Virus record (IMG/VR): IMGVR_UViG_3300025154_000052
Location: 64,001 to 128,000 of that record
Reading direction: 5' to 3' (one strand)
From: a virus
Length of the DNA stretch: 64,000 nt
Shown piece by piece: positions 2,038 to 46,437 of this stretch. Below the pieces are notes generated by a model. That model made no database searches, was not told the origin of the DNA, and saw nothing but the letters and a program-made list of their open reading frames with translations. The position numbers and the translations under genes were made by a program. How positions within the stretch are numbered: the first letter of the stretch is position 1; each line of letters starts with the position of its first letter.

Positions 2038-3558
2038 TCACGCCTCTTCATACTCCTCAACCTCGTGAATGTTTGTGCCGAGCAGACCCAGTTGGGCCTG
2101 CTCGCGAATCTGGTTCACCTCTCTCAGATACGCGAGTGCGTCTTCTTCGTTCACGTACTTGGTGCGCACGAGTACGTTCTCAAGTGCGTCATACAGGCCC
2201 GCACGTCGGACGGAAGTTCTGTACGACGCTTCAACGTGAAGCAGGTTCCGAATTCGCTCGTACTCCATGGGGTCGCTGCAGCACTCCTTGAGAAGCCCCA
2301 GCGCGTCTTTCTCAAAAGGAATGTCTACAGGTCCGAGAATGTCTCGGTCTGGATAGGGATGTCCAATCTCTTGCTCGTAGATACCGGGTAGGAGGTCTTC
2401 TATCTCGTGTTTGTCGAGCACCCAGATACGGCGGATTTCCCGAAGTTCATCCATGGAGATCAACTCGAGCCGTTCGCCGGCCGGTGCGTATTCGCTCACC
2501 TCGCGTTGAGTGCGCAGGAGTTTCCGTAGCCAGTCGGCTCGAGCCTGTTGAGTATATGGACCGGGGATCGTTCGGTCGTGGAAGAGTTGCACGCGGCCAT
2601 TCATGCGCCTGAAGTCGCGCAGATGGCGATCCTTCTGCATGGCCAGATCGTCACGCAAGCCAAGCAGTGGTTCCATCCACTCCTTTTCCGTGTCGTGCTG
2701 GATCATGGCAGCCATCGACTTGTCTTTTTCGACCAGCGTGCAGACCCAGCACCCGAACCGGCTCGAGCCGCATGACGGCGTTCCCGTATCGACTACCAGT
2801 GGACACTCTCCGGAGTCAGATCCCGCCGCGTACATCCTGAACAGTGCCCGGTTGTGCCACCCCCACGGGTTCGGCACCTGGAAGAGGAACGTCCACACAT
2901 CGTCGTTAGACCAGTCCTCGATGGGCGAGTAGACCCATGAGCCGGGTAGCGACTTGTTCGGGCTCAGGCGGTCACGTATACGCCCTTTCTCGGCTGCCTC
3001 CATGGTACGCCGGCGACTCGCACTCTCAGCCTTGCGAGTACCCAGGCACAGGATGGCCTCACCATGACGGCTGACGACGTTGGTGATGAACTTGTTGGAT
3101 GGCTTGATCTTCAGCCGTTCGGTACACCAGCGCATACCGGGCATGCGAGGGGAGCAATAGCCCTTGCCGATCAGGCATACCCAGAAGCTATCAAGCAGCT
3201 CCGGAGTGAGTTTGTGTGGCTTGATGGGCATTCCCTGCTTGTCAGCAGCAACGCCCATCTGCTCGAGCGACTTACCAACCCAGGCAGCGACCACCGGGTT
3301 CTCGACAAGCGTGTCTGTGCTGATGACGTGGACTGGCTTCTTGATGTCGGCTCGAGGCAGTTTGGCCAGCGCCGTCCAGACGAGTTGTAGTGTCGCAGAG
3401 CTGTCCTTGCCTCCGCTATAGCCCAACACCCATGGAGTGCCATCCTCGAGGTACAGGGTGCGGATCTCCTCCTGCAGGTCAGCGATGGACTGGGCCAGGC
3501 TTACCTTGTCAGACGATTCTTCTTGTTGCAGAAGCGATAACTGACTCATCGATCCCAT
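2038..3558 (-). CDS. dndC: DNA phosphorothioation sulfurtransferase DndC (PAPS-reductase family)
   Basis: PWVLGYSGGKDS, VISTDTLVENP, RWCTERLKIKP, LGTRKAES, ECPLVVDTGTPSCGSSRFGCWVCT, GPYT: all DndC hallmarks; probable start 3549. Confidence 0.92.
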   Translation of the reverse strand: MGSMSQLSLLQQEESSDKVSLAQSIADLQEEIRTLYLEDGTPWVLGYSGGKDSSATLQLVWTALAKLPRADIKKPVHVISTDTLVENPVVAAWVGKSLEQMGVAADKQGMPIKPHKLTPELLDSFWVCLIGKGYCSPRMPGMRWCTERLKIKPSNKFITNVVSRHGEAILCLGTRKAESASRRRTMEAAEKGRIRDRLSPNKSLPGSWVYSPIEDWSNDDVWTFLFQVPNPWGWHNRALFRMYAAGSDSGECPLVVDTGTPSCGSSRFGCWVCTLVEKDKSMAAMIQHDTEKEWMEPLLGLRDDLAMQKDRHLRDFRRMNGRVQLFHDRTIPGPYTQQARADWLRKLLRTQREVSEYAPAGERLELISMDELREIRRIWVLDKHEIEDLLPGIYEQEIGHPYPDRDILGPVDIPFEKDALGLLKECCSDPMEYERIRNLLHVEASYRTSVRRAGLYDALENVLVRTKYVNEEDALAYLREVNQIREQAQLGLLGTNIHEVEEYEEA

Positions 3559-6236: not shown

Positions 6237-6467
6237 TCATGGCTGCTTCGGGCGGGTGGACCATCGCCGCGTTCGTCGGCTTTGTGTCAACTGCTTGCGG
6301 GCACAGTCGCTACACTGCCTGGAACGGCCCTGCCGCAGGCTATCCCCTCGCACGAGGTGGATGGTTGCGCATGCCAGGCAGCGGCATTGGAATGTTTGTT
6401 CGCCAATGTATCGGAGAACGTCCCAGCCAGCAATACTGGTTCCTTCGAGTTTACGGCGATGGTTCAC
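6237..6467 (-). CDS. small Zn-ribbon hypothetical protein
   Basis: CRCLAC...CSDC motifs. Confidence 0.5.
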   Translation of the reverse strand: MNHRRKLEGTSIAGWDVLRYIGEQTFQCRCLACATIHLVRGDSLRQGRSRQCSDCARKQLTQSRRTRRWSTRPKQP

Positions 6468-6469
6468 AG

Positions 6470-6733
6470 TTACTCCACGTTGGTTTTGGTACAGTCGGCG
6501 ATGACCTCGCCCTTCTCATCGAAGTACCGGATACGCCATGTGGGATGACAGTTCATCGGGTGTTTGCCATGTTTGAGTCGGTTAGCAAACATCACGTCAA
6601 GGTTGGCGCTTTGATTCATCCCGATGATGGTTCCCACATCCCCATCGACTTCGACCATCATTCCAAGCCGGGCGAAGTCGATGCCCCGGCATCGTTTCAT
6701 GTCGTCGATGAATTGTTTTTCCTTCTGAGTCAT
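6470..6733 (-). CDS. conserved phage hypothetical protein
   Basis: GMMVEVDGDVGTIIGMNQSANLDV...CHPTWRIRYFD; start reassigned to ATG 6733 with GGAG RBS. Confidence 0.65.
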   Translation of the reverse strand: MTQKEKQFIDDMKRCRGIDFARLGMMVEVDGDVGTIIGMNQSANLDVMFANRLKHGKHPMNCHPTWRIRYFDEKGEVIADCTKTNVE

Positions 6734-6776
6734 GAGATCTCCAAGGAGGCAAGGTTTATCCGGCCAGGGAAGACGG

Positions 6777-7103
6777 TTACCAGATATGAATGCCAATGTG
6801 CCACGACGGCTTGACGTCCAGTCCGAGCACATCGGCGCACTTGGCCAGGGCGTCCAGATGCTCAGGCTTGATCGGGCTCGGATCTGCCGTCATCTCGACG
6901 TGTGGACCGAATACCGTGTCTTCATCGCCTTGGTACGCGGAGCCGATTTCCGCGTACCACCAGTTGACCTCGAACGTAGCTTTCAGGAAGTCATCAAGCG
7001 AGTCTGGGCCGTCGTCGATGTCGAGCTTCGCGCAGATCTCATTCAGTTGCTCAGCCGTGAAGCGGAAGCCATACTTCACCACTGCCGTGTAATCGATGCT
7101 CAT
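6777..7103 (-). CDS. hypothetical protein
   Basis: 108-aa co-oriented ORF. Confidence 0.6.
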   Translation of the reverse strand: MSIDYTAVVKYGFRFTAEQLNEICAKLDIDDGPDSLDDFLKATFEVNWWYAEIGSAYQGDEDTVFGPHVEMTADPSPIKPEHLDALAKCADVLGLDVKPSWHIGIHIW

Positions 7104-31797: not shown

Positions 31798-32300
31798 AGA
31801 TTCTCTTCCCGTGTCTCAATACCTTCATGGTGCCACGTGTCCGCGTCGTGGCTAACAACTGGAATCCCAACCACGTGAGTTCGGACAAGATGCGGCTACT
31901 CATGCAGTCCATCATCGATAATGGTTGGTGTTTCCCTATTGTGACGGTTCATGATTCGGACGAAGACGTTTATCGTGTGGTCGATGGCTTCCACCGTTGG
32001 ACGATTGCCGGCCCCGAATGGCTAGACTTGCCGGAGGTTCCGATCGTAGTCATCGCTGTGTCTGTTGCCCAGCGGATGGCCGCGACAGTCCAATTCAACA
32101 AGGCACGTGGGGTCCACCAGGTAGATCTTGACGCCGACCTGATCCGGGCGCTCATCGAACAGGGCATGAGCGAGGAAGAGATCTCTTTGCATCTCAGTAT
32201 CGAGATGGAAACCATCCACCGCTACAAGTCACTGACCGGAATAGCGGCTCTCTTTGCCAATGCCACATGGTCCACGGCATGGACCATGGAGGAGACGTGA
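31794..32300 (+). CDS. IbrB/YbdM-like ParB/Srx domain protein (copy 1)
   Basis: ANNWNPN, SIIDNGWCFPIV, VVDGFHR, FNKARG. Confidence 0.9.
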   Translation: MKILFPCLNTFMVPRVRVVANNWNPNHVSSDKMRLLMQSIIDNGWCFPIVTVHDSDEDVYRVVDGFHRWTIAGPEWLDLPEVPIVVIAVSVAQRMAATVQFNKARGVHQVDLDADLIRALIEQGMSEEEISLHLSIEMETIHRYKSLTGIAALFANATWSTAWTMEET

Positions 32301-33376
32301 TCCCGAATGGGTGCAAACTCTACCTACCCAAGAACGTTCTCGAGGCCGCTATTGAGCGTATAGCCTGGATATTCGACCATTACGAGAACGTCTGTGTCTC
32401 CGTCTCGGGAGGAAAGGATAGTTCCGTGCTGGTCGAACTGGCACGGCGTGAGGCCGAGAGACGTGGACGGGTGATTCACGTTTTCTTTCTCGACCAGGAA
32501 GTTGAGTACCGTTCCACGGTTGAAGTCATGCGGTACATCATGACTCGCCCGGCTGTAAAGGCACACTGGGTACAGGTCCCCATCCGAATGACGAACGCCA
32601 CATCCTATGAGGACGAGTTCTTGTATGCCTGGGGACCGGGTGAGGAATGGGTCAGGCCGAAGGAGCCCGACTCCATCCATGAACTCCCGGATGCACCAGA
32701 TCGATTCTACTCGTTCTTCGACTGGTGGGAAGCCCAGTGGCCTGAGAACACAGCGTGTCTTGTCGGTCTTCGGGCCGAAGAGAGTCTAAATCGGTTTGGC
32801 GCTGTGACCCGTCATCCTGCCATTCCAGGCATCAACTGGTCGTCTCCTGGCGGCGGGAAGAGCATTAAGTTCTACCCTCTCTACGACTGGACGTTCGAGG
32901 ACATCTGGACGTTCATCGGCAACGAGGGACCGGTCTACAACCGCGTCTATGACTGGATGTGGGCCAAGGGGCGAAACATCGGAGATCTTCGGGTCTCCAA
33001 CCTCATTCATGAGCGTGCGTTCAAGAGCCTGGCTGACCTTCAGGAGTTCGAGCCCGATACATACGATGCGCTCATTCGCAGGCTAAAGGGTGTGCACACA
33101 GCTGCTCTGTACAGTCGAGAGCAGATGGTGTTCAGCACGAAGAAACGGCCAGCGCAGTTCTCATCCTGGCGAGCGTACCGAGACTTTTTACTCGAGACGC
33201 TTCCGAACGAGAGACGACAACAATTTCTCGAGCGGTTCGGAAATCAACTCCAGAGCGAATCCGTGTTCCGGCAGCAGGTCCGCCAGCTCCTGCTGAACGA
33301 TTGGGAGAACAACATCCCGGTGGTCCAGCAGCCGGATCGGCCGAACCCATTACTGAAGTGGATGGACATCCTATGA
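32267..33376 (+). CDS. IbrA/YbdN-like PAPS-reductase family protein (copy 2)
   Basis: NVLEAAIERI, SVSGGKDS, VGLRAEESLNR, YPLYDW, RVSNLIH. Confidence 0.9.
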   Translation: MVHGMDHGGDVIPNGCKLYLPKNVLEAAIERIAWIFDHYENVCVSVSGGKDSSVLVELARREAERRGRVIHVFFLDQEVEYRSTVEVMRYIMTRPAVKAHWVQVPIRMTNATSYEDEFLYAWGPGEEWVRPKEPDSIHELPDAPDRFYSFFDWWEAQWPENTACLVGLRAEESLNRFGAVTRHPAIPGINWSSPGGGKSIKFYPLYDWTFEDIWTFIGNEGPVYNRVYDWMWAKGRNIGDLRVSNLIHERAFKSLADLQEFEPDTYDALIRRLKGVHTAALYSREQMVFSTKKRPAQFSSWRAYRDFLLETLPNERRQQFLERFGNQLQSESVFRQQVRQLLLNDWENNIPVVQQPDRPNPLLKWMDIL

Positions 33377-37821: not shown

Positions 37822-38891
37822 TGGGAGATGTGGCAAGGCTTATTGTGGAGTCAGACGGAGTCTACTACTACGGATCGCGGAAGGTGGCTTTTATCGAGCG
37901 CAGACGGGGTGATATGCGGGTCTGTCGGATAGATGGCTCTCCTGTCAGCACTTCGGTTGACTCGCCTGCTGCTGCCCTCTCTATCGTCCGCGAATGGGTT
38001 GAAGAAGTGCAGTCTCATGAGGACGCCAGGGCGGTCAGAAACCCGGTGTTCGCTGAGCCCGATCCTCTGGACAAAATTCCCCAGGAAGAACGAGAGCAGC
38101 CTGATACAACTGTAGCCGAAAAACTTCGGGCTGGTGTAGCAAAAAAGCGCGCCGAGCTCGACAAGAAGGTGAAGATTCTTGATGTGGAGGAGTGCAAAGC
38201 CGAGTGTGAACCCACGCGGCTGGCATTCAAGCGTGAACGTGATGAGCAGAAGCAGAAAAGGAGAGTAGTGATGGCAGGAAATCCCAAAGTGACACAGGCG
38301 ATGAAGGAACACGGTATCGCGACATGGCGAGGACTCTCGGAGTGTCTCGATATCCCGATCAAAACACTGTCCGGGATGAACACAAGCCGGAGCCTTCGTA
38401 CCGCACGTCGGAAGGTGGCCGAATTCCTCGGTGAGCAGCCCCAGTACCTCTGGCCCCACATGTACACGCCCGATGGTCAAGATCTGCCGACGTCGACCGG
38501 CGTAATCAACGCTGTGGCTGAACTCGAGCCCGACATGTCGATAATTCAGTCCGAACCAGAGTATGTGGAGTTGACGCCGGTCCAAGACTCCCCGGTGGTC
38601 GCCGTCCCCAATAAGCCGGTCAACGTGCATGATCTGAATGTACCCGTTCTGAGAGAATTATCCGTTCTGACGGAGCAGTTCGTCACTCGAGCACTCCATC
38701 GTGCCGAACTGCTGCACGAGGTTCATATCCTGACGGCGGGTGTTCAACTCGGGCGGCTGGGCTGGTGTCTGGAAATGAACGTGCCCGTCGAGCCGGACCC
38801 GGCGCTGTGGCTGCTCAAGAATCACATGCCGGAAACCATTGCCATTTTGAAGCGATGGCACCCGGACAACGAGATCTTGGCCCGCTGGTAG
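37821..38891 (+). CDS. protein with Ner-like HTH domain
   Basis: LSECLDIPIKTLS...RKVAEFLGEQPQYLWPHMY. Confidence 0.6.
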   Translation: MGDVARLIVESDGVYYYGSRKVAFIERRRGDMRVCRIDGSPVSTSVDSPAAALSIVREWVEEVQSHEDARAVRNPVFAEPDPLDKIPQEEREQPDTTVAEKLRAGVAKKRAELDKKVKILDVEECKAECEPTRLAFKRERDEQKQKRRVVMAGNPKVTQAMKEHGIATWRGLSECLDIPIKTLSGMNTSRSLRTARRKVAEFLGEQPQYLWPHMYTPDGQDLPTSTGVINAVAELEPDMSIIQSEPEYVELTPVQDSPVVAVPNKPVNVHDLNVPVLRELSVLTEQFVTRALHRAELLHEVHILTAGVQLGRLGWCLEMNVPVEPDPALWLLKNHMPETIAILKRWHPDNEILARW

Positions 38892-38893
38892 AC

Positions 38894-39376
38894 CTACGAC
38901 CGCCACCCCGCTTGCATACCTACCCGCTCCAGCCACTTTCCGCCCACCCATAGATGGACGTCCAGCGAAAAGATGCGGTCGATTGCGGCCTGGAAGCGCT
39001 GTAGTAGCGTGGGATCGGCTAGGAAGTCACGTATACCAGGCTCAGGGACCAAAAGGTGAAGATCGGTCAGGATGGCCTGCACGGAGTCGTTAACGGCTTC
39101 TACCGTAGCATCCTCGGTCGCGAAGCCCTGCTTACAGGTGTGCAACACGTCCGCCTCGACAGTGGTCCACCAGCGATGCTCAAACGAGTAATGCCGGTGA
39201 GTCGTCGTCAGTTTCAGGTGTACGGTCGGACGTGACGACCAGCACCGGGGACATCTGGGCGAGTCCTCGAACGAACGACGGGCGCTATTGCTGGTGAACT
39301 CGACATGATGACCACATTCGAAGGTGTGGCTGGTGGCAGTAGGGGAAGGGACCTCGAGCGAACCTGGCTTGAACAT
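38894..39376 (-). CDS. hypothetical protein
   Basis: 160-aa ORF with GGAGG RBS. Confidence 0.55.
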   Translation of the reverse strand: MFKPGSLEVPSPTATSHTFECGHHVEFTSNSARRSFEDSPRCPRCWSSRPTVHLKLTTTHRHYSFEHRWWTTVEADVLHTCKQGFATEDATVEAVNDSVQAILTDLHLLVPEPGIRDFLADPTLLQRFQAAIDRIFSLDVHLWVGGKWLERVGMQAGWRS

Positions 39377-39417
39377 GATACCTCCGTTTACCCACCGTCA
39401 GGTGGGTGTCTAGTGTG

Positions 39418-39651
39418 TTACCAGCGTGCAATCATGCGCCGTCCATCCGTCGCCATCGTCTCGTCATGGACGCGATATCCCAGAGCGGATTCGGCGCGTT
39501 CCCGGATCTCCCGAACCGCATACTTTGCATGGGGTGACCACGCCATCGTCCGGGATTGGTAAACCAGCGCTTCCAGGTGACGCTTGTCGCCTGTGGCGAT
39601 TGCTGCGTCCACATGGGATCTCAAGTCAGCCACGTTCTTAATCATTGGCAT
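39418..39651 (-). CDS. small hypothetical protein
   Basis: 77-aa ORF in leftward block. Confidence 0.55.
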   Translation of the reverse strand: MPMIKNVADLRSHVDAAIATGDKRHLEALVYQSRTMAWSPHAKYAVREIRERAESALGYRVHDETMATDGRRMIARW

Positions 39652-39850
39652 CCTCCATCTCCCATTTCAGTGGGATGTCGCTCACTCGCCGGTATCCGTC
39701 CGGCGTCGGTCCCCGATAGACCACATTGCCGGTGTCGTCGCACCAGTCGTTGGAAAGAGGGTGCTGCTTGTACAGTGTTTCAGGGAGGTTTCGCTGTGCC
39801 TCTCTGATATGGCGTGCGTAGTCGCTGAGAAAATGTTTCACGTCGTCCAT
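39638..39850 (-). CDS. small hypothetical protein
   Basis: 70-aa ORF, AGGAGG RBS, hairpin leader. Confidence 0.6.
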   Translation of the reverse strand: MDDVKHFLSDYARHIREAQRNLPETLYKQHPLSNDWCDDTGNVVYRGPTPDGYRRVSDIPLKWEMEDAND

Positions 39851-39988
39851 AAAACCTCCTGTTGTTACTCTCCGTCATTCGTCCCGCCGTCCGACAGTGC
39901 CGGGCGGCGATTCGAAGGGCGGTTACCGGAAATTGGTGCATCCCCATGCCCAGTTTTGCCGGGGGATCAAGAGGCGGCCCCCAACCGA

Positions 39989-40789
39989 TTACAGCGGCCA
40001 GATGGCCGCCACCAGTTGCCGGAACGGCCCGTGCCCGTAGTGGGACACGCCGTCATGCGCGTCATATGCCGCCACCGCATCAGGTCGCACGCTCCGTAGA
40101 TACGCCCGGACATTGGGCCGGGTCATCACCGTAGGTCCCGCGTCAAGCAGGTCCTCGGGTACGGTCTGGCGACTCCCGGGAAACATCGCCCGAGTCTCAT
40201 CGGTATGCTCCATCGGTACCGGCGGCGGCGCGACGACAACGCTCGATCCGAACTGCTCGACGAGCCGGGCAACGACGGGCGGGCGGGTCTTCCACTCCGC
40301 CCACTCGGTGCGGCGACGGAAGAGTATGGCACCGTCCGATGCCCGGGTCCCGATAAGGTAGTGTGTCTCGATCCACGTCCGCGCCTGCTGGGCGGTCTGG
40401 ATATGGAGATAACCGGCGTCGGCAGGGCCGCCGTACAACTCGAGGGCGACGACGGTCAGAACCTTTTCAGGGTCCGCTTCGGCGGTCACAATCACCTCTG
40501 AGATGTGCCGCCACTGCGAGCCGTTCAGGTGCTTCCCGTCCGCGAGGACGAGAAGCCACGTCCACGATGTCACGGTGACGGTCTTGTGCCCGCCGCCGGT
40601 AAAGTGGTCATTCGGCTGGTGAGTGTATTCCCGGGCGCTGTAGGCAATGCGCCCATCAGTCTGGATTGTCTGATTCAGTCTGCCGTTGGGGCAGTGGCTA
40701 TTGTCGTAAAATGAAATCTGCCGCGTCCACTTACGCCAGATTTCCGTTGTGGTCAGGGCGATACCGAGCTGCTTCAGGATTGCTTCCAT
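39989..40789 (-). CDS. hypothetical protein
   Basis: Within ORF 39989..40903; ATG 40789 after hairpin and purine-rich leader. Confidence 0.6.
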   Translation of the reverse strand: MEAILKQLGIALTTTEIWRKWTRQISFYDNSHCPNGRLNQTIQTDGRIAYSAREYTHQPNDHFTGGGHKTVTVTSWTWLLVLADGKHLNGSQWRHISEVIVTAEADPEKVLTVVALELYGGPADAGYLHIQTAQQARTWIETHYLIGTRASDGAILFRRRTEWAEWKTRPPVVARLVEQFGSSVVVAPPPVPMEHTDETRAMFPGSRQTVPEDLLDAGPTVMTRPNVRAYLRSVRPDAVAAYDAHDGVSHYGHGPFRQLVAAIWPL

Positions 40790-40869
40790 TCCACTCTCCC
40801 CTTCTTCGTTTTCGTTTTCGTTGTTGTCCACGATGCCCGCCTCACATCGGGCATCGGTGTCAGGCGTAG

Positions 40870-41169
40870 TCAGAGCGCAGTGACACCGAGAATCTGCGCC
40901 CATTCCTCACGGTAGCGGCGGCGCCCTTCCGCCTCCTGGTTTTCCATCGCGATCCGGTCGGCGTGGGTGCCGAACCGGGCGAGGTGCTCCGCCTGCTCAA
41001 CGGTCACATCTACGTGCCGATACTCCAAAGGGATGTATCCGTGTCCCGGGCTTACCACCTTCACCAGTTCCCCCACCTTTTCGGTGGAGGGGTCCCACGA
41101 TACGACTATCCGCCGCCCCTGGATCGGATTGCGGCCATAACCACACCCGGCTTTCCACTGAACCTGCAT
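40870..41169 (-). CDS. small hypothetical protein
   Basis: MQVQWKAGCGYG...; AAGGAG RBS, hairpin leader. Confidence 0.55.
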   Translation of the reverse strand: MQVQWKAGCGYGRNPIQGRRIVVSWDPSTEKVGELVKVVSPGHGYIPLEYRHVDVTVEQAEHLARFGTHADRIAMENQEAEGRRRYREEWAQILGVTAL

Positions 41170-41233
41170 CTCATACTCCTTTGCAACTTCGTTCTCCTCT
41201 GCCTCCGGACATCGGGGGCAGGAGAAAACGGCA

Positions 41234-41980
41234 TCACCGGACCTGAAACAGCCCGGTCCGCTGTCCCGACCTCGTGACGTCGGTGACAAGAATCGCGACC
41301 CCGGGATATGTGACATGGACGGCATCGATGATCCGCCCGTCCTGCGGCACCAGGATCGCGTCGTACCCCTCGCACCCGGGGGGCACCTGCACCGTCCCGC
41401 CCGGCAACCGGAGTGTCTGTAACTCGACGGGGACCTGCGCCAGATCCGGACCGTCGGCGACCTCCACCGCGAACGACCCGGGGATCGCCCGGTGAAGGTG
41501 GTAGGCCATGAGCGGGAGGGTGGGACACTTGATAAACCCCGCCGCCTGCCACGTCGGAGTGTCGTCCATACACTCGTCTTCCGAGTCCTCGGGCCACTCG
41601 CCCGGGTCGAGGAATTCCACCTCGAGCCCCTCCGGAGCAGGCTCAAGGACGTCGCAGACAAACGACCCGTTCTGCTGCCGCTGGCCGGAAAGCGGGACGC
41701 AGAACGGGATGAGCCCGGCAGCGCGAACCCACCGGACCGCAGGGGCAAATCGGGGCACGATGACTACGCCATCGTGACTCTCAACACCGCCGTCGAGTCC
41801 GACGGAAGAGCCGTCCGTCGACCTCCATAAGCGCACATCGGGGCCGTTAAACCCCAACAGCACCGGGAACGCCGGATGACTGCCCGGCGCGGTGACCGGA
41901 GTGAAAACGAGCGGAGCAGGGACCGCCGCGGGGTACGTGACACCCGCGACGGCGACGGCGAAATGACACAGATTCAGCAT
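41234..41980 (-). CDS. hypothetical protein
   Basis: 248-aa ORF, AAGGAG RBS, hairpin leader. Confidence 0.6.
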   Translation of the reverse strand: MLNLCHFAVAVAGVTYPAAVPAPLVFTPVTAPGSHPAFPVLLGFNGPDVRLWRSTDGSSVGLDGGVESHDGVVIVPRFAPAVRWVRAAGLIPFCVPLSGQRQQNGSFVCDVLEPAPEGLEVEFLDPGEWPEDSEDECMDDTPTWQAAGFIKCPTLPLMAYHLHRAIPGSFAVEVADGPDLAQVPVELQTLRLPGGTVQVPPGCEGYDAILVPQDGRIIDAVHVTYPGVAILVTDVTRSGQRTGLFQVR

Positions 41981-42044
41981 GATCGTTCTCCTTCGTCTCC
42001 TTTGCCCGGTATTCCGGGCGTCTCACGTCTCCGAAAGGACGGGG

Positions 42045-42242
42045 TCAACCCTCATCAGTCTCTTTCCAGGCGGTTACGTCGCACACCTCTTCGGGGTGAA
42101 CACGGGAGTATTCTCTCGCTGCCTCCCGCCTCCTCCGCAACTCCAGTGCGGCTGCCATGTCCGTTACACTGCTTCGCGGGTAGATACAACCGTCCGGGCG
42201 GACGGCGTATCCAGGTGGAACCACTACGTTTTTCAGATCCAT
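42045..42242 (-). CDS. small hypothetical protein
   Basis: MDLKNVV...; AAGGAG RBS, hairpin leader. Confidence 0.55.
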   Translation of the reverse strand: MDLKNVVVPPGYAVRPDGCIYPRSSVTDMAAALELRRRREAAREYSRVHPEEVCDVTAWKETDEG

Positions 42243-42394
42243 CTCGTTCTCCTTCTGCCCGGTCTTGCCGGGCTGTTGTTTCGCCACTTCATCCGATCGT
42301 CCGTCTGGCAGTCGGGCGATCGATCAAGGGACGGTGGGCGTCCAAATCGATTACAGCGGCCAGCTAGCCGCGACCAACTGTCTGAACTGCGCGT

Positions 42395-42658
42395 TTATTC
42401 CACGCGAGCGGCGGATGCACCGCCCGCCCTCCACAATATCGCCCCGGAAACGACCTCGCCATCCTTGAGCCACAGGATGTGCTCGGCGAGTACGGCACCG
42501 TCGATGCCGTCCGGCACGACGGCGGACGCTGTGCCCTGCCGGGAGAATACACGTTCGCCGGGCGTGACCGGCCGGACATGCCAGCCGCAGGGGCTTGCTA
42601 TGACTACCTTGGGCTTGAGTTGGTAGTCAGTGGCGTGGAGAGTGTATCGGTGCTTCAT
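42395..42658 (-). CDS. small hypothetical protein
   Basis: MKHRYTL...; AGGAGG RBS, hairpin leader. Confidence 0.55.
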   Translation of the reverse strand: MKHRYTLHATDYQLKPKVVIASPCGWHVRPVTPGERVFSRQGTASAVVPDGIDGAVLAEHILWLKDGEVVSGAILWRAGGASAARVE

Positions 42659-42795
42659 CTCGTCCTCCTGCCCTCTCGGGCTGTTTCGTCCGTTTTCCTC
42701 TGCCTCCGATCGTCGGGGGCAGGAGAAAACGGCCCGCCGAAGCGGGCCCGGTGCTATTCGTCGTCCCCCCCCAGACGACGGGGAGGACGGGCAAA

Positions 42796-43128
42796 TCAGG
42801 TGGTCTGAGGCGGTAGCACGATAGCCGCCTCGTCCCACCTGGAGTGCAGCCGGTGGCGCGTATCCCACGCCTCGTCGGTGGGCGGCCAGTCCCGCTCCGC
42901 ATCCAGCAGGGACCACCCATCCTCCGATACCGTTACGCGGCCGTGTGCCGCCGCGTGGGCCGTCTGACCTGGACGGGGAGCGATACCCGCCGCCGACAAT
43001 CTACGGACCGGGACGGCCGCCCCGGTCGGACCGAACGGCTCAACTTCCTGCCCGTTACGGTCCTGATATTTATGCCGGCCCCACAGAGCCTGCCATAACT
43101 GCCCATGGCTATCGAAAAAGTAACTCAC
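42796..43128 (-). CDS. small hypothetical protein
   Basis: 110-aa ORF; AAGGAG RBS, hairpin leader. Confidence 0.55.
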   Translation of the reverse strand: MSYFFDSHGQLWQALWGRHKYQDRNGQEVEPFGPTGAAVPVRRLSAAGIAPRPGQTAHAAAHGRVTVSEDGWSLLDAERDWPPTDEAWDTRHRLHSRWDEAAIVLPPQTT

Positions 43129-43222
43129 TTCATCTCCTTGCTGTGCCCGGTCTCCCGGGCTGTTGTCGTCCGTTCATCCGATCGTCCGTCTGGCAGTCGG
43201 GCGATCGATCAAGGGGCGGAGG

Positions 43223-43417
43223 CTATAGCGAAGCGTCCAATTTCCGGCAGCGGGCGGTCACCCGTGCCTCGAAGTCGGTATTGGACTCGCCCTCCTGCTG
43301 GTCGATGGTCTCAACCACACCCGACCAGTTGCCGGCGGGGATCTCCTCGTCGGGCTCGAAGGCGTGGACGCCAGGGGTGTATACGCCGGTGTTCTGGATG
43401 AGTTGGTACGATTTCAT
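43223..43417 (-). CDS. small hypothetical protein
   Basis: MKSYQLIQ...; AAGGAG RBS; promoter at 43476-43504. Confidence 0.55.
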   Translation of the reverse strand: MKSYQLIQNTGVYTPGVHAFEPDEEIPAGNWSGVVETIDQQEGESNTDFEARVTARCRKLDASL

Positions 43418-43475
43418 TTCTATTCTCCTTCTCGTCTTAATCTCCGGCCGCCTCATTGCGACCGTTGATGATATA

Positions 43476-43504
43476 AGTATATCCCCAGCGGGTATGCGTG
43501 TCAA
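43476..43504 (-). promoter_or_regulatory. sigma70 promoter with operator-like spacer
   Basis: TTGACA-N17-TATACT. Confidence 0.8.
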
Positions 43505-43532
43505 CAGAAAAAGATACCCATTGGGGATTATT

Positions 43533-43733
43533 TTACTTCGCCCGCTCCGCCCGAATCCGGGCAATCTCCGCCTCCGAAACCAGGGGCTGCCTGGGCTCCA
43601 GGGGCTGGCCCTCTGGGTCCCGGGCATAGTCCAGTTGCAGCGGCGCCCGTTTCCGGTCCGCCAATTGGCGGATTGAGTTTTTGTCGGCGAACCCGAGTTC
43701 TCGGGCCGCCGCACGAACTGAGTACCATTTCAT
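43533..43733 (-). CDS. small HTH DNA-binding protein
   Basis: YSVRAAARELGFADKNSIRQL; GGAGG RBS; promoter TTGACT-N17-TATATC at 43763-43791. Confidence 0.7.
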   Translation of the reverse strand: MKWYSVRAAARELGFADKNSIRQLADRKRAPLQLDYARDPEGQPLEPRQPLVSEAEIARIRAERAK

Positions 43734-43866
43734 CGTGTATCCTCCGGTTATCCCCCTCTGGAGATATACCCGGCGGGGAGAGGGAAGTCAAGGGTCGTTC
43801 CTCTCTGCCCCCGGTCATCGGGGACACGGAGGAGCGAGCCGGGATAGGCTCCCGGCGGGCTCGGGG

Positions 43867-44082
43867 TCAGTAGTCGGGGTGAGCGTACACGTGCCCTCGG
43901 CGCCACTCCCAACCAGGATACGCAGCCTCGAGCGCAGCATCCGCCTCGGCCTCGGTGGCGTACCTGCCGAGTTCGGAATCGCGTTCGTCCCCTGCGGTTC
44001 CGCCAACCGGGACGGGCAGGGACCGACCGACACCCCCACTCGCGTCCACCACCGCCGCCCACTCGATCCGTGTCTCGTCCAT
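43867..44082 (-). CDS. small hypothetical protein
   Basis: 71-aa ORF. Confidence 0.45.
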   Translation of the reverse strand: MDETRIEWAAVVDASGGVGRSLPVPVGGTAGDERDSELGRYATEAEADAALEAAYPGWEWRRGHVYAHPDY

Positions 44083-44194
44083 CTCCCATCTCCCTTGCGG
44101 CTTCCCGCCGCTCTCGGCCCCACCGTCTCGGTATCGGGGCCAGGGTTGGACTCCGGCACAATGCCGGGGTCGGGCTGAGGGCGCCCGCTGAAAA

Positions 44195-44443
44195 CTACAA
44201 CTTCACATTTCGATACTTGTAGGGCGGCTTTATTGGCTGCCCCACTGCGTCAGTACCCCGGGCCAACTCCCGGATGTCGTACTGCTCGAATGCCAGCATC
44301 CACTCATCAGACTTCGACTCCATATCCAACGCTTGAAGCGCCTCCATCATCTTGCGACTGCTGGCGGTGTTCCGCTGAGTCTGCCGCTCGATCTGCTCGG
44401 CCTTCTCTGAATTTCGCCTTGTCCTGATCTGGGCTGCTGTCAT
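44195..44443 (-). CDS. small hypothetical protein
   Basis: GGGAGG RBS; consensus promoter upstream. Confidence 0.6.
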   Translation of the reverse strand: MTAAQIRTRRNSEKAEQIERQTQRNTASSRKMMEALQALDMESKSDEWMLAFEQYDIRELARGTDAVGQPIKPPYKYRNVKL

Positions 44444-44477
44444 TAGTTGTCCTCCCAACCTCGATTATCTGATTAGG

Positions 44478-44506
44478 ATTATATGTCCCGGCTGGACATA
44501 TGTCAA
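44478..44506 (-). promoter_or_regulatory. consensus sigma70 promoter with palindromic spacer
   Basis: TTGACA-N17-TATAAT; atatgtcc-cggct-ggacatat inverted repeat. Confidence 0.85.
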
Positions 44507-44533
44507 CAGGTAAAATTCACTTTCGTAAAAAAA

Positions 44534-44782
44534 TCACGATTTTTTTCGAGACGGCGGAATCGGGTTCGGATTCCGCTTTTTCGGCAAGATGAACCCGTCT
44601 ACCGCATCGTGGGGAATACGGTAACGGCGGACGGTTAGATCTTTAGCCTGGTCAGCGGGTACCCACCCCTGCTCATCGGTAAGTGCATCACCGGCGAGCA
44701 ACCCGTCACTGAGCCATCGACGCACCGCCCGTGTACTACGGCCATATCGCTCAGCAATCTCGTCTTGAGTAAGATAGTTCAT
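44534..44782 (-). CDS. MerR/excisionase-like HTH protein
   Basis: LTQDEIAERYGRSTRAVRRWLSDG; promoter TTGCAT-N17-TATAAT at 44810-44838. Confidence 0.75.
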   Translation of the reverse strand: MNYLTQDEIAERYGRSTRAVRRWLSDGLLAGDALTDEQGWVPADQAKDLTVRRYRIPHDAVDGFILPKKRNPNPIPPSRKKS

Positions 44783-44845
44783 GTTGTCCTCGGCAAAAGG
44801 GTACGCTGTATTATACGACCAGCCGGGACGTAATGCAAGAGGAGA

Positions 44846-45946
44846 TTACTTGGAGGGGAACTTCTCAGCCATGCGGTCCACGATCTCCTGCTTGTGCGCG
44901 TTTAACAGATGGGAGTAGCGCATGGTCATCTGGAGGGACTTGTGACCCAGAATAGCAGCCACGTCGGCGAGGCTGGCGCCGGACATGATCAGGTAGCTGG
45001 CGGCTGTGTGTCTGAGCGTGTGCCGGGTGACGCCCTGTAACCCAGTCTCGCGGATGCATGCGTCCCAAGCTCGCTTTAGGTCCAGGGGTTTACAGGTGTC
45101 GATCGTACTAGGGAAGAGCAGATCCACACCGAGTAGCCGGTGATGGTTCGTCCAGTCTCGGATTGCGCCCAGCGCAGGTGCAGCTAGGGGGACGTAGCGA
45201 GGTTCGCTGTTCTTAGTCGTCCCCTCGCGCAGTACCAGGTGACGGTGCTCGATATCCACCTGTTCCCAGCGCAGGCCCATGATCTCGGACAGCCGGCAAC
45301 CGGTGTAGATGAGCAGGACTGCTACCGGGTACATAGCCGGGTTCTGACGCTTCGCCGCCTCGAGTAACTGTGCCCGCTCGGAGTCGGTCAAAAACCGGGT
45401 TCGGCCTCGAGGTTCACGCTGCTTTCGGACCTTGACCATCGGGTTGGCATCCATCCATCCCCAGTCCTTGACTGCAGCGGTGAACGCGGTACTGAGTGCA
45501 GCCAGGTACCGGTTGACCGTGGCAGGTGTCCGGACCTGACCGCGGGGAGTCAGTCCTCGTGCAAGATCGTCTCGAGCCTGGGTAAGCATGGTGGCAGCGA
45601 CATCTGGCAACGCTACATCTCCCAGTTGCGCCTTCCACCAGAAGAGCTCTCGCTCAGTGTCCCGGGCGCTCTTCGGCCTATTGGGAAGCACCTCGTCTAT
45701 ATACCGGTCGATCAGGTCTGCCACGGTGCGACTCTGGGCCACAACATCGGGTCTGAGCCTCTCTTCTCTAATGACCGCCTTGGTCGTGTCCTGCCAGTAT
45801 TTAGCGTCCTGGAGGCGGTCGAAGGTTTTCACCTGGGGTGCATACCCCTTGATCCGGACTTCGACCCGGTAGACCTTCCGTCCGGTAGGGTAGACTCGCT
45901 CGATTATCCCCGGTGGGAGTCGCTTACCCTGCTTGGTAGTGCCCAT
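44846..45946 (-). CDS. int: tyrosine recombinase (phage integrase)
   Basis: YTGCRLSEI (R), HTLRH (HxxR), LGHK, MTMRYSH (Y); ATVNRYLAAL core-binding motif. Confidence 0.95.
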   Translation of the reverse strand: MGTTKQGKRLPPGIIERVYPTGRKVYRVEVRIKGYAPQVKTFDRLQDAKYWQDTTKAVIREERLRPDVVAQSRTVADLIDRYIDEVLPNRPKSARDTERELFWWKAQLGDVALPDVAATMLTQARDDLARGLTPRGQVRTPATVNRYLAALSTAFTAAVKDWGWMDANPMVKVRKQREPRGRTRFLTDSERAQLLEAAKRQNPAMYPVAVLLIYTGCRLSEIMGLRWEQVDIEHRHLVLREGTTKNSEPRYVPLAAPALGAIRDWTNHHRLLGVDLLFPSTIDTCKPLDLKRAWDACIRETGLQGVTRHTLRHTAASYLIMSGASLADVAAILGHKSLQMTMRYSHLLNAHKQEIVDRMAEKFPSK

Positions 45947-46036: not shown

Positions 46037-46080
46037 AGCCGAAGGCCGGATTCGAACCGGCGACCTGCTGATTACGAATC
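46037..46080 (-). mobile_element. attP core = 3' half of tRNA-Thr(CGT)
   Basis: Reverse complement GATTCGTAATC-AGCAGGTCGCCGGTTCGAATCCGGCCTTCGGCT runs from anticodon loop to acceptor; 5' half absent; TGCTACGG/GCTACTG repeats flank it (~45966, 46154, 46188, 46200, 46265). Confidence 0.85.
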
Positions 46081-46437
46081 GGGAAAGCACACTGGACTAT
46101 TACAGCACTTGTTTCGATCTTTCGCAGGCTTACAAGTGAGTCGCGTTAGCGTATTGCTACTGATTACTGTCCCGAATCAGGTGTCACTGCTACGGGAAAT
46201 GCTACGGGTGCGGGCGAGTATTGTTGGTGCTAGAGCGGCATGAGCGGCAGCGTCTGCAGGAAATGGCTACTGCGTTTGATCATGCCATAGTGGTATCTGG
46301 CTGTCCATTAGATTTCGCTATCTCGAATATCTCCACCCAGTTGGTAGATAATTCTCTGCTTAAAAGTAAAAGAGTATTTTAAAAGTCCTTGACGACCGGT
46401 TGCGCCTCGTCCATACTCCTAGCAGTGCCTTGCTGGA

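Follow-up and report, generated by a model that had tools for sequence, protein, structure and literature searches.

The leftward operon and its structured spacers

The DNA considered here, called the window below, is the 64,000-nt stretch formed by bases 64001-128000 of a 137.6-kb virus record (IMG/VR record IMGVR_UViG_3300025154_000052). This phage comes from groundwater, and the sample names of identical contigs point to Rifle. From a tyrosine integrase leftward to the end of g10, all genes are carried by the minus strand. They comprise the gene of an excisionase-like helix-turn-helix protein, three small genes and then a block of ten small genes, g1 to g10, which an independent pipeline calls in the same way. 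From this row of minus-strand genes and from the consensus promoter located ahead of it, g1-g10 are predicted to form one operon. Searches of Pfam and PHROG gave no match for the products of g1-g10, and no paralogy was found among the block proteins. The present analysis deals with the seven spacers that separate the genes from g1 to g8. These spacers, 64-152 nt in length, fold into strong hairpins on the coding strand. The hairpins recur from one junction to another, and all copies stand between a stop codon and the next Shine-Dalgarno (SD) sequence, on the coding strand of a single operon with a consensus promoter. Coordinates are collected in Table 1; positions are those of the window unless the contig or a relative is specified.

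Read in the mRNA sense, a full module begins with a long imperfect hairpin just past the upstream stop codon. It continues with a short unpaired A/C-rich linker containing ACA, then with a tight GC-stem hairpin usually capped by GAGA, here called the clamp, and ends with a strong SD sequence 0-7 nt further on. A preliminary description of this DNA had placed such a two-hairpin module before each gene. This holds in full for g2, g3 and g4 and weakly for g5, whereas g6, g7 and g8 are preceded by the long hairpin only. The long hairpins reported at that stage in five gaps (H2a, H1b, H2b, H1a and He in Table 1), the perfect CCCG/CGGG version in the g6/g7 gap (Hg) and the four hairpins adjoining SD sequences, with loops AAUA, CAAGA, GAGA and GAGA and with AACA ahead of three of them, were all recovered at their places when read on the minus strand. 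Two further long hairpins are added to this list, H1c and the weak Hf. The proposal of a cassette-like array also stands, since hairpin units are common to junctions whose flanking genes are unrelated. Thus, the unit made of H2, linker and clamp is common to two junctions that differ in the genes on both sides, and H1 alone is common to two other junctions.

Long hairpins

The core C-CCG-N5-9-CGG-R is common to all long hairpins, including the single-copy He and Hg and, weakly, Hf; its form with a final A (C-CCG-N5-9-CGG-A) is found in He, H1a, H2b, H1b and H2a. The stems of H1, H2 and He contain 16-20 pairs with two internal mismatches, that of Hg 9-11 pairs and that of Hf about 4-6. Members of the H1 family measure about 43 nt and those of the H2 family about 57 nt (42281-42337 compared with 43166-43222, 91% identity). 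Folding z-scores, computed against dinucleotide shuffles, range from -2.0 to -5.3. In the 137.6-kb contig, core hairpins with at least four outer pairs occur 10 times, as compared with 1.9 +/- 1.2 in Markov simulations, and seven of these ten are intergenic, on the minus strand and within 39884-43826. Scans with exact H1 patterns gave no match in IMG/VR, and the matches found in metagenomes were unrelated hairpins only.

Compensatory changes had been announced for the outer stems; they are present but few (three between H2b and He, three pairs among the H1 copies). He can be considered homologous to H2 because its flanks align on both sides. Pairs of the H2 and He stems were counted with a core-anchored script, since the MAFFT alignment of the long hairpins is not structure-aware. 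Between H2b and He, three double changes preserve pairing (UA>CG, AU>GC and GC>CG), and a C.A mismatch and an A.A mismatch are retained at identical places in He and H2. Among the three copies of H1, 3 of 18 pairs are changed on both sides, a value equalled by 27 of 500 shuffles. Moreover, H1a and H1b, as well as H2a and H2b, are near-identical duplicates, so that the copies are not independent. As evidence of a maintained structure, the covariation of the long hairpins appears suggestive but thin.

In the g6/g7 gap, the public call of g7 uses as start an ATG located inside Hg (280 aa) and devoid of an SD sequence. The ATG at 40789 (266 aa), which has an SD sequence 5 nt upstream, is more likely to be the start codon.

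Clamp hairpins at the Shine-Dalgarno sequences

The ribosome-binding sites of the block are of the ordinary AAGGAG type. The 6-bp clamp GCCCGG-loop-CCGGGC is found three times in the 137.6-kb contig, each time 2-7 nt upstream of an SD sequence. A covariance model built from the copies, R1, retrieves only the four clamp sites of Table 1 in the whole record, with E-values from 1e-10 to 1e-5. ACA motifs, such as those of the linkers, number ten in the seven 40-nt segments preceding the starts, for about 3.7 expected. No Rfam family matches the block at gathering score; the matches obtained are at chance level, with E-values above 0.4. At about five junctions, base pairing is also predicted between the SD sequence and runs of pyrimidines close to the preceding stop codon, as could occur in translational coupling, a count that is uncontrolled and carries little weight.

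Short hairpins unrelated to the clamps also end just ahead of the SD sequences of gm1 (44090-44112, with a GGGAA pentaloop), g0 (43742-43770) and g10 (39384-39408). A stem-loop abutting the ribosome site is thus a general habit of the leftward region and not a property of the repeated family alone. Two other ideas suggested by reading of the sequence, CsrA-type GGA sites and a mini open reading frame starting in the hairpin loop, were dropped because they are not conserved between copies.

The module in relatives and in other phages

No close relative of the phage was found. A blastn search of the block against 50,697 phage records was empty, exact-protein and DNA look-ups retrieved only identical copies of this phage in other samples, and scans of IMG/VR with g4, g5, g7 and a neighbouring 356-aa protein gave no relative. 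Among 5.8 billion proteins, g7 and g10 match only themselves. Homologues of the integrase (at most 50% identity) occur in Nitrosospira-type betaproteobacteria and other bacteria, and did not lead to related phages. With 24 metagenomic homologues, g5 is the sole gene of the block having known relatives. Two contigs, L044 (19 kb) and L046 (6 kb), share from this block g5 only, at 42-52% amino-acid identity; L044 also has IbrA/IbrB-like genes and one further gene in common with regions of the phage outside the block.

Both contigs carry clamps, at 6433, 6782 and 9832 in L044 and at 3088, 3659 and 4585 in L046. All six are located 0-4 nt ahead of the SD sequence of unrelated small genes. The stem sequences found are GCCCCG, GCCCG, GCCCCC or GCCGG, and GAGA forms the loop in five of the six clamps, and in seven of the ten clamp copies of this lineage overall. 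In L044, the region 6707-6810 corresponds to a whole module, with a long hairpin having the CCCG/CGGG core, an AACA-containing linker, the clamp and the SD sequence. The genes around the pre-SD hairpin differ in L044 and L046 while the hairpin itself is kept. The module is therefore conserved while the surrounding genes differ, and not, as the preliminary description had considered for the contrary case, devoid of both conservation and gene-content variation in relatives.

The search was extended with a clamp pattern having S (G or C) at two inner stem positions and followed by an SD sequence. In IMG/VR, this pattern gave 21 matches, 14 of which have complementary inner pairs as compared with 25% expected (P = 7e-5); a start codon follows in 11 of these 14. 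In bacterial and archaeal genomes (596 Gb), complementary pairs are found in 34 of 121 matches, which corresponds to chance, and few matches are followed by starts. An R1 search of several of the IMG/VR contigs revealed 2-4 copies clustered within 1-1.5 kb, mostly ahead of genes of 50-170 codons. The parts of these contigs that were fetched have essentially no proteins in common with each other or with this phage. When 35 R1 matches are aligned, 97% of the cells pair, and two inner pairs switch between CG and GC in 13 sequences, a result reached by none of 500 shuffles; because the alignment is fitted to R1 and includes pattern-chosen matches, the constancy of its outer stem and loop is partly by design. 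Thus, the covariance model, which the preliminary description had proposed to build and search, has matches in other phages with covarying inner pairs. A first clamp pattern including the AACA prefix gave mostly chance-like matches.

A trace of gene replacement

The suggestion that the repeats are tied to gene shuffling is supported by a 53-nt segment located between g3 and g4, directly after the stop codon of g3. This segment resembles the 3' end of g7. Translated, it still gives FRQLVAASWPL-stop; past the stop codon come the bases that also follow g7, and after them the H2/He hairpin. It indicates that a g7-like gene once stood there and was replaced, the break being at the module.

Table 1. 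Features of the leftward small-gene region (window positions).
Feature	Position	Strand	Remarks
H2a, long hairpin	43166-43218	minus	imperfect, about 19 pairs, conserved C.A and A.A mismatches; after g1 stop; z = -2.0
H2b, long hairpin	42281-42333	minus	91% identical to H2a; g3/g4 gap; z = -2.65
He, long hairpin	39872-39922	minus	homologous to H2 by flanks, three compensatory pair changes; g7/g8 gap; z = -2.5
H1b, long hairpin	42691-42733	minus	g2/g3 gap; z = -4.35
H1a, long hairpin	41190-41232	minus	91% identical to H1b; g5/g6 gap; z = -5.3
H1c, long hairpin	43796-43838	minus	diverged third copy, 70% identity; gm1/g0 gap, beyond the range of the preliminary description; z = -4.4
Hg, long hairpin	40831-40856	minus	perfect 9-bp hairpin, CCCG/CGGG core; g6/g7 gap; z = -4.05
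Hf, long hairpin	42030-42043	minus	weak, core only, free energy (dG) -3.7; g4/g5 gap
Clamp before g2	43145-43160	minus	6-bp GC stem, GAGA loop, AACA prefix; SD 7 nt downstream; R1 E = 1.6e-10
Clamp before g3	42670-42681	minus	short 4-bp stem, GAGA loop; abuts SD; R1 E = 3e-6
Clamp before g4	42257-42273	minus	6-bp stem, 5-nt loop CAAGA; R1 E = 1.9e-5
Clamp before g5	42004-42019	minus	6-bp stem, loop AAUA; R1 E = 1e-7
A/C-rich unpaired linker	42274-42290	minus	ACA motifs; between long hairpin and clamp
Equivalent A/C linker	43161-43175	minus	
Equivalent A/C linker	42682-42691	minus	
3' remnant of g7-like gene	42342-42394	minus	53 nt, with stop codon and downstream bases; 79% identical to 39980-40032
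Ten-gene operon g1-g10	38894-43417	minus	small genes of unknown function; same genes in independent pipeline
g1	43223-43417	minus	
g2	42796-43128	minus	
g3	42395-42658	minus	
g4	42045-42242	minus	
g5	41234-41980	minus	
g6	40870-41169	minus	
g7	39989-40789	minus	
g8	39638-39850	minus	
g9	39418-39651	minus	
g10	38894-39376	minus	
Terminator-like GC hairpin	42731-42748	minus	UUCG loop, U-rich tail; 3' of g2, within operon; not repeated
Consensus sigma-70 promoter	43476-43504	minus	11/12 matches; predicted driver of g1-g10
Consensus sigma-70 promoter, upstream	44478-44506	minus	12/12 matches
Operator-like palindrome, copy 1	43481-43495		15 bp, AT(A/C)CCC-N3-GGG(G/T)AT
Operator-like palindrome, copy 2	43514-43528		15 bp, as copy 1
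Operator-like palindrome, copy 3	43766-43780		15 bp, as copy 1
Tyrosine integrase	44846-45946	minus	adjoins tRNA-Thr
tRNA-Thr	46037-46106		beside tyrosine integrase

Other features of the region

The first two copies of the 15-bp palindrome are situated on either side of the -35 box of the g1 promoter, and the third overlaps a weaker promoter-like site ahead of g0. The palindromes are probably the operators of a repressor. A second operator-like inverted repeat (44482-44501) occupies the 17-bp spacer of the perfect upstream promoter. It recurs in inverted form at 44813-44832, in a promoter-like site of the gap that separates the excisionase-like gene from the integrase. The G+C content is 57% for the contig and 63-64% at 40-44 kb. 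The segment 40001-44000 forms a compositional island, in which the G+C content at third codon positions amounts to 0.73-0.83 in g1-g3 and g5-g7; this fits an acquisition from elsewhere. At the other end of the block, a rightward DNA-modification operon converges on the leftward small-gene operon, with 2 nt between the stop codons (38891/38894). Since this gap is so short and no terminator is found between the convergent operons at 38891-38894, each of them should read antisense into the other.

The phage also has a CRISPR feature that involves the block. A 37-nt spacer of its own mini CRISPR array 1 (contig 32276-32312, 31.7 kb before the start of the window) is identical over 37/37 positions to the 3' part of g4 (window 42058-42094), and is the sole one of seven spacers having a match in the contig. 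The matched region of g4 encodes ...PEEVCDVTAWKE. If the array were transcribed in the minus sense, the guide would have the sense of the g4 mRNA, and the 5' flank of the target would end with TTCACC. The match may correspond to self-targeting or to self-regulation, or protection may be provided by the DNA-modification genes of the phage. As regards g5, its AlphaFold model is confident (pLDDT 88.9), and its N-terminal domain, formed by residues 1-117, is similar to Crn4, a CRISPR-associated ring nuclease (VIA Z = 5.8 over 98 aligned residues). The next unrelated structural match has a Z of 3.2, and Foldseek gave no significant match. The model thus provides a weak lead for g5 being an anti-defence gene.

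Possible roles of the hairpins

RNA-level control by processing or translation, one of the roles put forward in the preliminary description, is plausible in view of the position of the hairpins and of the GNRA loop on the sense strand. The sequences show that the hairpins exist and where they stand, that they are conserved and covary in other phages, and that a recombination scar is present. On this basis it can be proposed, with what we regard as an even chance of being right, that the spacers are cis-acting intercistronic expression cassettes that also act as recombination points. In such a cassette, the clamp would lock the sequence beside the ribosome site into a fixed structure and the unit would keep this site clear of upstream pairing, so that a newly arrived gene could be translated independently of what stands upstream. 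Stacking of the clamp on the SD/anti-SD helix is a further possibility. A cut in the linker would turn the clamp into a protective 5' stem-loop on the downstream message. The long hairpin, for its part, may protect the 3' end of the upstream message or serve as a site for a double-strand RNase, and would keep the untranslated gaps folded. Finally, units of 40-90 nt placed between unrelated genes could provide short homologies for gene swaps.

This cis-acting role is favoured by the location of a hairpin 0-7 nt from the SD sequence, by the GNRA loop, which adopts its special fold on the sense strand only, and by the enrichment in ACA motifs. Two precedents are relevant. ACA motifs are documented translation enhancers in enterobacteria (PMC3879156), and 5' stem-loops stabilise processed mRNAs such as papA and ompA, as cited in PMC3997798 (its references 92-95). 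Several observations point in the opposite direction. The clamp is missing before g1, g6, g7, g8 and g9 and is hence not required for expression, and three of the ten loops of the lineage (AAUA, AAGU and CAAGA) are not extra-stable tetraloops. The linker contains no U and is in this respect unlike an E. coli RNase E site. The covariation of the long hairpins rests on few related copies, and hairpin-templated DNA mutation could yield concerted changes in both arms without selection. In the IMG/VR scan, the GAGA loop, the outer stem and the SD sequence were preset in the pattern, so that their constancy in the matches is by design. Moreover, the long hairpins fold equally well or better in antisense (summed energies of -193 kcal/mol in antisense and -169 kcal/mol in sense), six of the eight having the greater stability on the plus strand, owing to the G.U pair that replaces the conserved C.A mismatch there. 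Such an advantage is not expected of a selected sense-strand RNA helix.

The clamp might instead be read in trans. T4 RegA and the coat proteins of RNA phages act on translation via operators, and the clamp could likewise be the operator of a phage or host RNA-binding protein that represses or activates the tagged genes together. The conservation of the GAGA loop and of the outer stem GCC.../...GGC while inner pairs covary would suit such a protein. So would the end of the clamp 0-7 nt from the SD sequence, where a bound protein would block the 30S subunit, the enrichment of the motif in phages and not in bacteria, and the constant apical core and C.A mismatch of the long hairpins over variable lower stems, as is often the case in protein-binding hairpins. 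This explanation nevertheless seems unlikely to us: no RNA-binding domain was found in the proteins of the block or its neighbourhood, the same clamp occurs in phages that have no detectable genes in common over the stretches fetched, which speaks against a phage protein dedicated to it, and no small hairpin is more stable than one with a GC stem and a GNRA loop. A version of it that we find rather doubtful takes the GC-stem/GAGA clamp at the SD sequence for a phage-specific tag of a trans factor, for instance the arginine-rich gm2 or a host protein. If this were true, shuffled early genes of many unrelated phages would be jointly switched, protected or antiterminated, and the clamp would be a widespread marker of a post-transcriptional regulon not yet described. 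Another explanation dispenses with RNA function altogether, the hairpins being quasi-palindromic DNA that arises from, and promotes, recombination or small mobile insertions and that is tolerated only in intergenic gaps. The pairs of 91% identical copies, the recombination scar and the lack of a sense-strand advantage of the long hairpins agree with it, and the three adjacent pair changes between H2 and He could represent one hairpin-templated event. We hold it to be quite improbable, however, given that the structure of the clamp is kept by covarying pairs and its place at the SD sequence is kept in distant and unrelated phages, that all copies have one orientation, that no target-site duplications were seen on reading the flanks, and that contig scans showed no copies outside the block. 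REP/BIME elements are present in many copies throughout genomes, in both orientations and with a conserved head sequence. Assignment to these elements was rejected, the copies being confined to one 4-kb block in a single orientation.

The remaining explanations involve transcription or site-specific recombination. The clamps could be boxB-like nut sites, at which an arginine-rich N-like protein would favour readthrough of the internal terminator after g2. In the lambda record, boxB of nutL reads as a hairpin in which a GCCC stem carries a purine loop, a terminator-like hairpin does stand inside the operon, and the first clamp follows a small first gene, like nutR after cro. In addition, gm2 (44195-44443, 82 aa), the first gene past the upstream promoter, is loosely like lambda N, with an arginine-rich N-terminus in a low-confidence, probably disordered model. 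This resemblance is not significant (BLASTP E = 0.9), gm2 has no match in Pfam, PHROG, the PDB or phages, and no protein was recognised as belonging to the N family, whose members are so short and divergent that its absence is not established. No match to boxA (CGCUCUUA-like) exists on the coding strand in 38800-44900 with one mismatch allowed. The operon contains four copies, each at an SD sequence and all but the first beyond the terminator, and the loops are tetraloops, not GNRA-like pentaloops (CAAGA before g4 apart). The antitermination analogy of the preliminary description is therefore not retained, and we consider it very unlikely. A function on the plus strand, where the hairpins would halt antisense RNA entering from the convergent rightward operon, which ends 2 nt from g10, or would give this RNA a structure, is in line with the greater stability of most long hairpins there and with the missing terminator between the two operons. 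On that strand the clamps are followed by T-rich tails (the complement of AACA), and one clamp was flagged as terminator-like. These tails are poor U-tracts, though, the first such hairpin is 3 kb into the block, the GNRA loops and the fixed distance to the SD sequence make sense on the minus strand only, and relatives retain the SD adjacency, all of which renders this function highly improbable. Lastly, the row of promoterless small genes in one orientation, located beside a tyrosine recombinase and with an imperfect, partly unpaired hairpin after each gene, recalls an integron-like cassette array in which the neighbouring integrase would use the hairpins as attC sites. The chance of this is negligible. 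The integrase scores 61.7 bits with TIGR02249 (cut-off 265) and 40.6 with NF011946 (cut-off 435), and no RYYYAAC or GTTRRRY core site is found in the seven spacers on either strand, which refutes the integron explanation. The position of the integrase beside tRNA-Thr is that of an ordinary phage integrase, and the enzyme is most closely related to integrases of prophages.

The interest of the cis-acting cassettes proposed here lies in a more general problem. Small early phage genes are constantly exchanged, and how newcomers are reliably expressed is poorly understood. The locus displays a portable module, made of hairpin and ribosome site, that is kept amid gene change and is clustered in unrelated uncultured phages. 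If the module insulates translation or stabilises messages, it would explain the expression of shuffled genes and could serve in operon design as a compact part of natural origin; should a protein recognise the clamp, a new phage regulon would be defined. In either case, the covariance model R1 offers a searchable signature for plastic regions rich in accessory genes in metagenomic phages. In the literature covered, which is incomplete and leaves novelty unproven, no GNRA-capped hairpin joined to an SD sequence is described as a recurrent phage motif.

Comparison with known systems

In RNase III sites of the T7 type, the hairpin between two genes spans about two helical turns and is interrupted by an internal loop. 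Like these sites and the papA and ompA hairpins (references in PMC3997798), the hairpins described here are intercistronic, with about 16-20 pairs and internal mismatches, and a cut would leave a stem-loop at the downstream start and a hairpin at the upstream end. They differ in that stems range from 9 to 20 pairs and in that the clamp is tied to the SD sequence and not to a mapped 5' end. The likeness to lambda boxB, a GCCC/GGGC stem with a purine-rich loop of the GNRA type, is one of shape only; the loops of the block are GAGA (two), AAUA and one CAAGA pentaloop, and several copies occur per operon, each at an SD sequence.

Promoter-early stem-loops (PeSLs) of T4-type phages combine a strong sigma-70 promoter with a terminator stem-loop, and their copies separate non-essential, functionally uncharacterised genes of a plastic early region, where recombination swaps, deletes and inserts genes (PMC2839356; PMC4122927). 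Similarly, the copies described here flank non-conserved genes of unknown function, a replacement scar is visible, and the relatives share only g5 from the block. However, no strong promoter is present in the g1-g8 spacers (the only ones being at 43476-43504 and 44478-44506), the repeated hairpins lack a U-tract when read on the coding strand, and only the non-repeated hairpin after g2 is terminator-like. The constant part is here a hairpin joined to a ribosome-binding site. The two kinds of repeat are not similar in sequence and belong to different groups of phages.

In Cluster K mycobacteriophages, some of the non-structural genes carry start-associated sequences (SAS), all oriented alike: a fixed, asymmetric 13-bp sequence that contains the SD sequence and stands 3-8 bp upstream of the start codon. 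Imperfect inverted repeats, with a spacer that varies, are found ahead of about half of them, as in the extended form, ESAS (PMC3203893). The SAS elements are kept before different gene families across relatives, are rare in hosts and are thought to concern translation initiation (PMC3203893). The module of the present phage shares with SAS and ESAS a motif at the ribosome site of some genes, in one orientation, that is retained before differing genes. By contrast, its conserved element is a base-paired hairpin with a covarying stem, upstream of an ordinary SD sequence, the SAS 13-mer is not found at the ribosome sites of the block, and the two systems differ in sequence, in hosts and in phage lineage. 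As its unit has neither promoter nor terminator and does not carry the SAS consensus, the array is a member of neither group; it is closest to the PeSL cassettes by its effect on the genome, and to SAS/ESAS by its anatomy.

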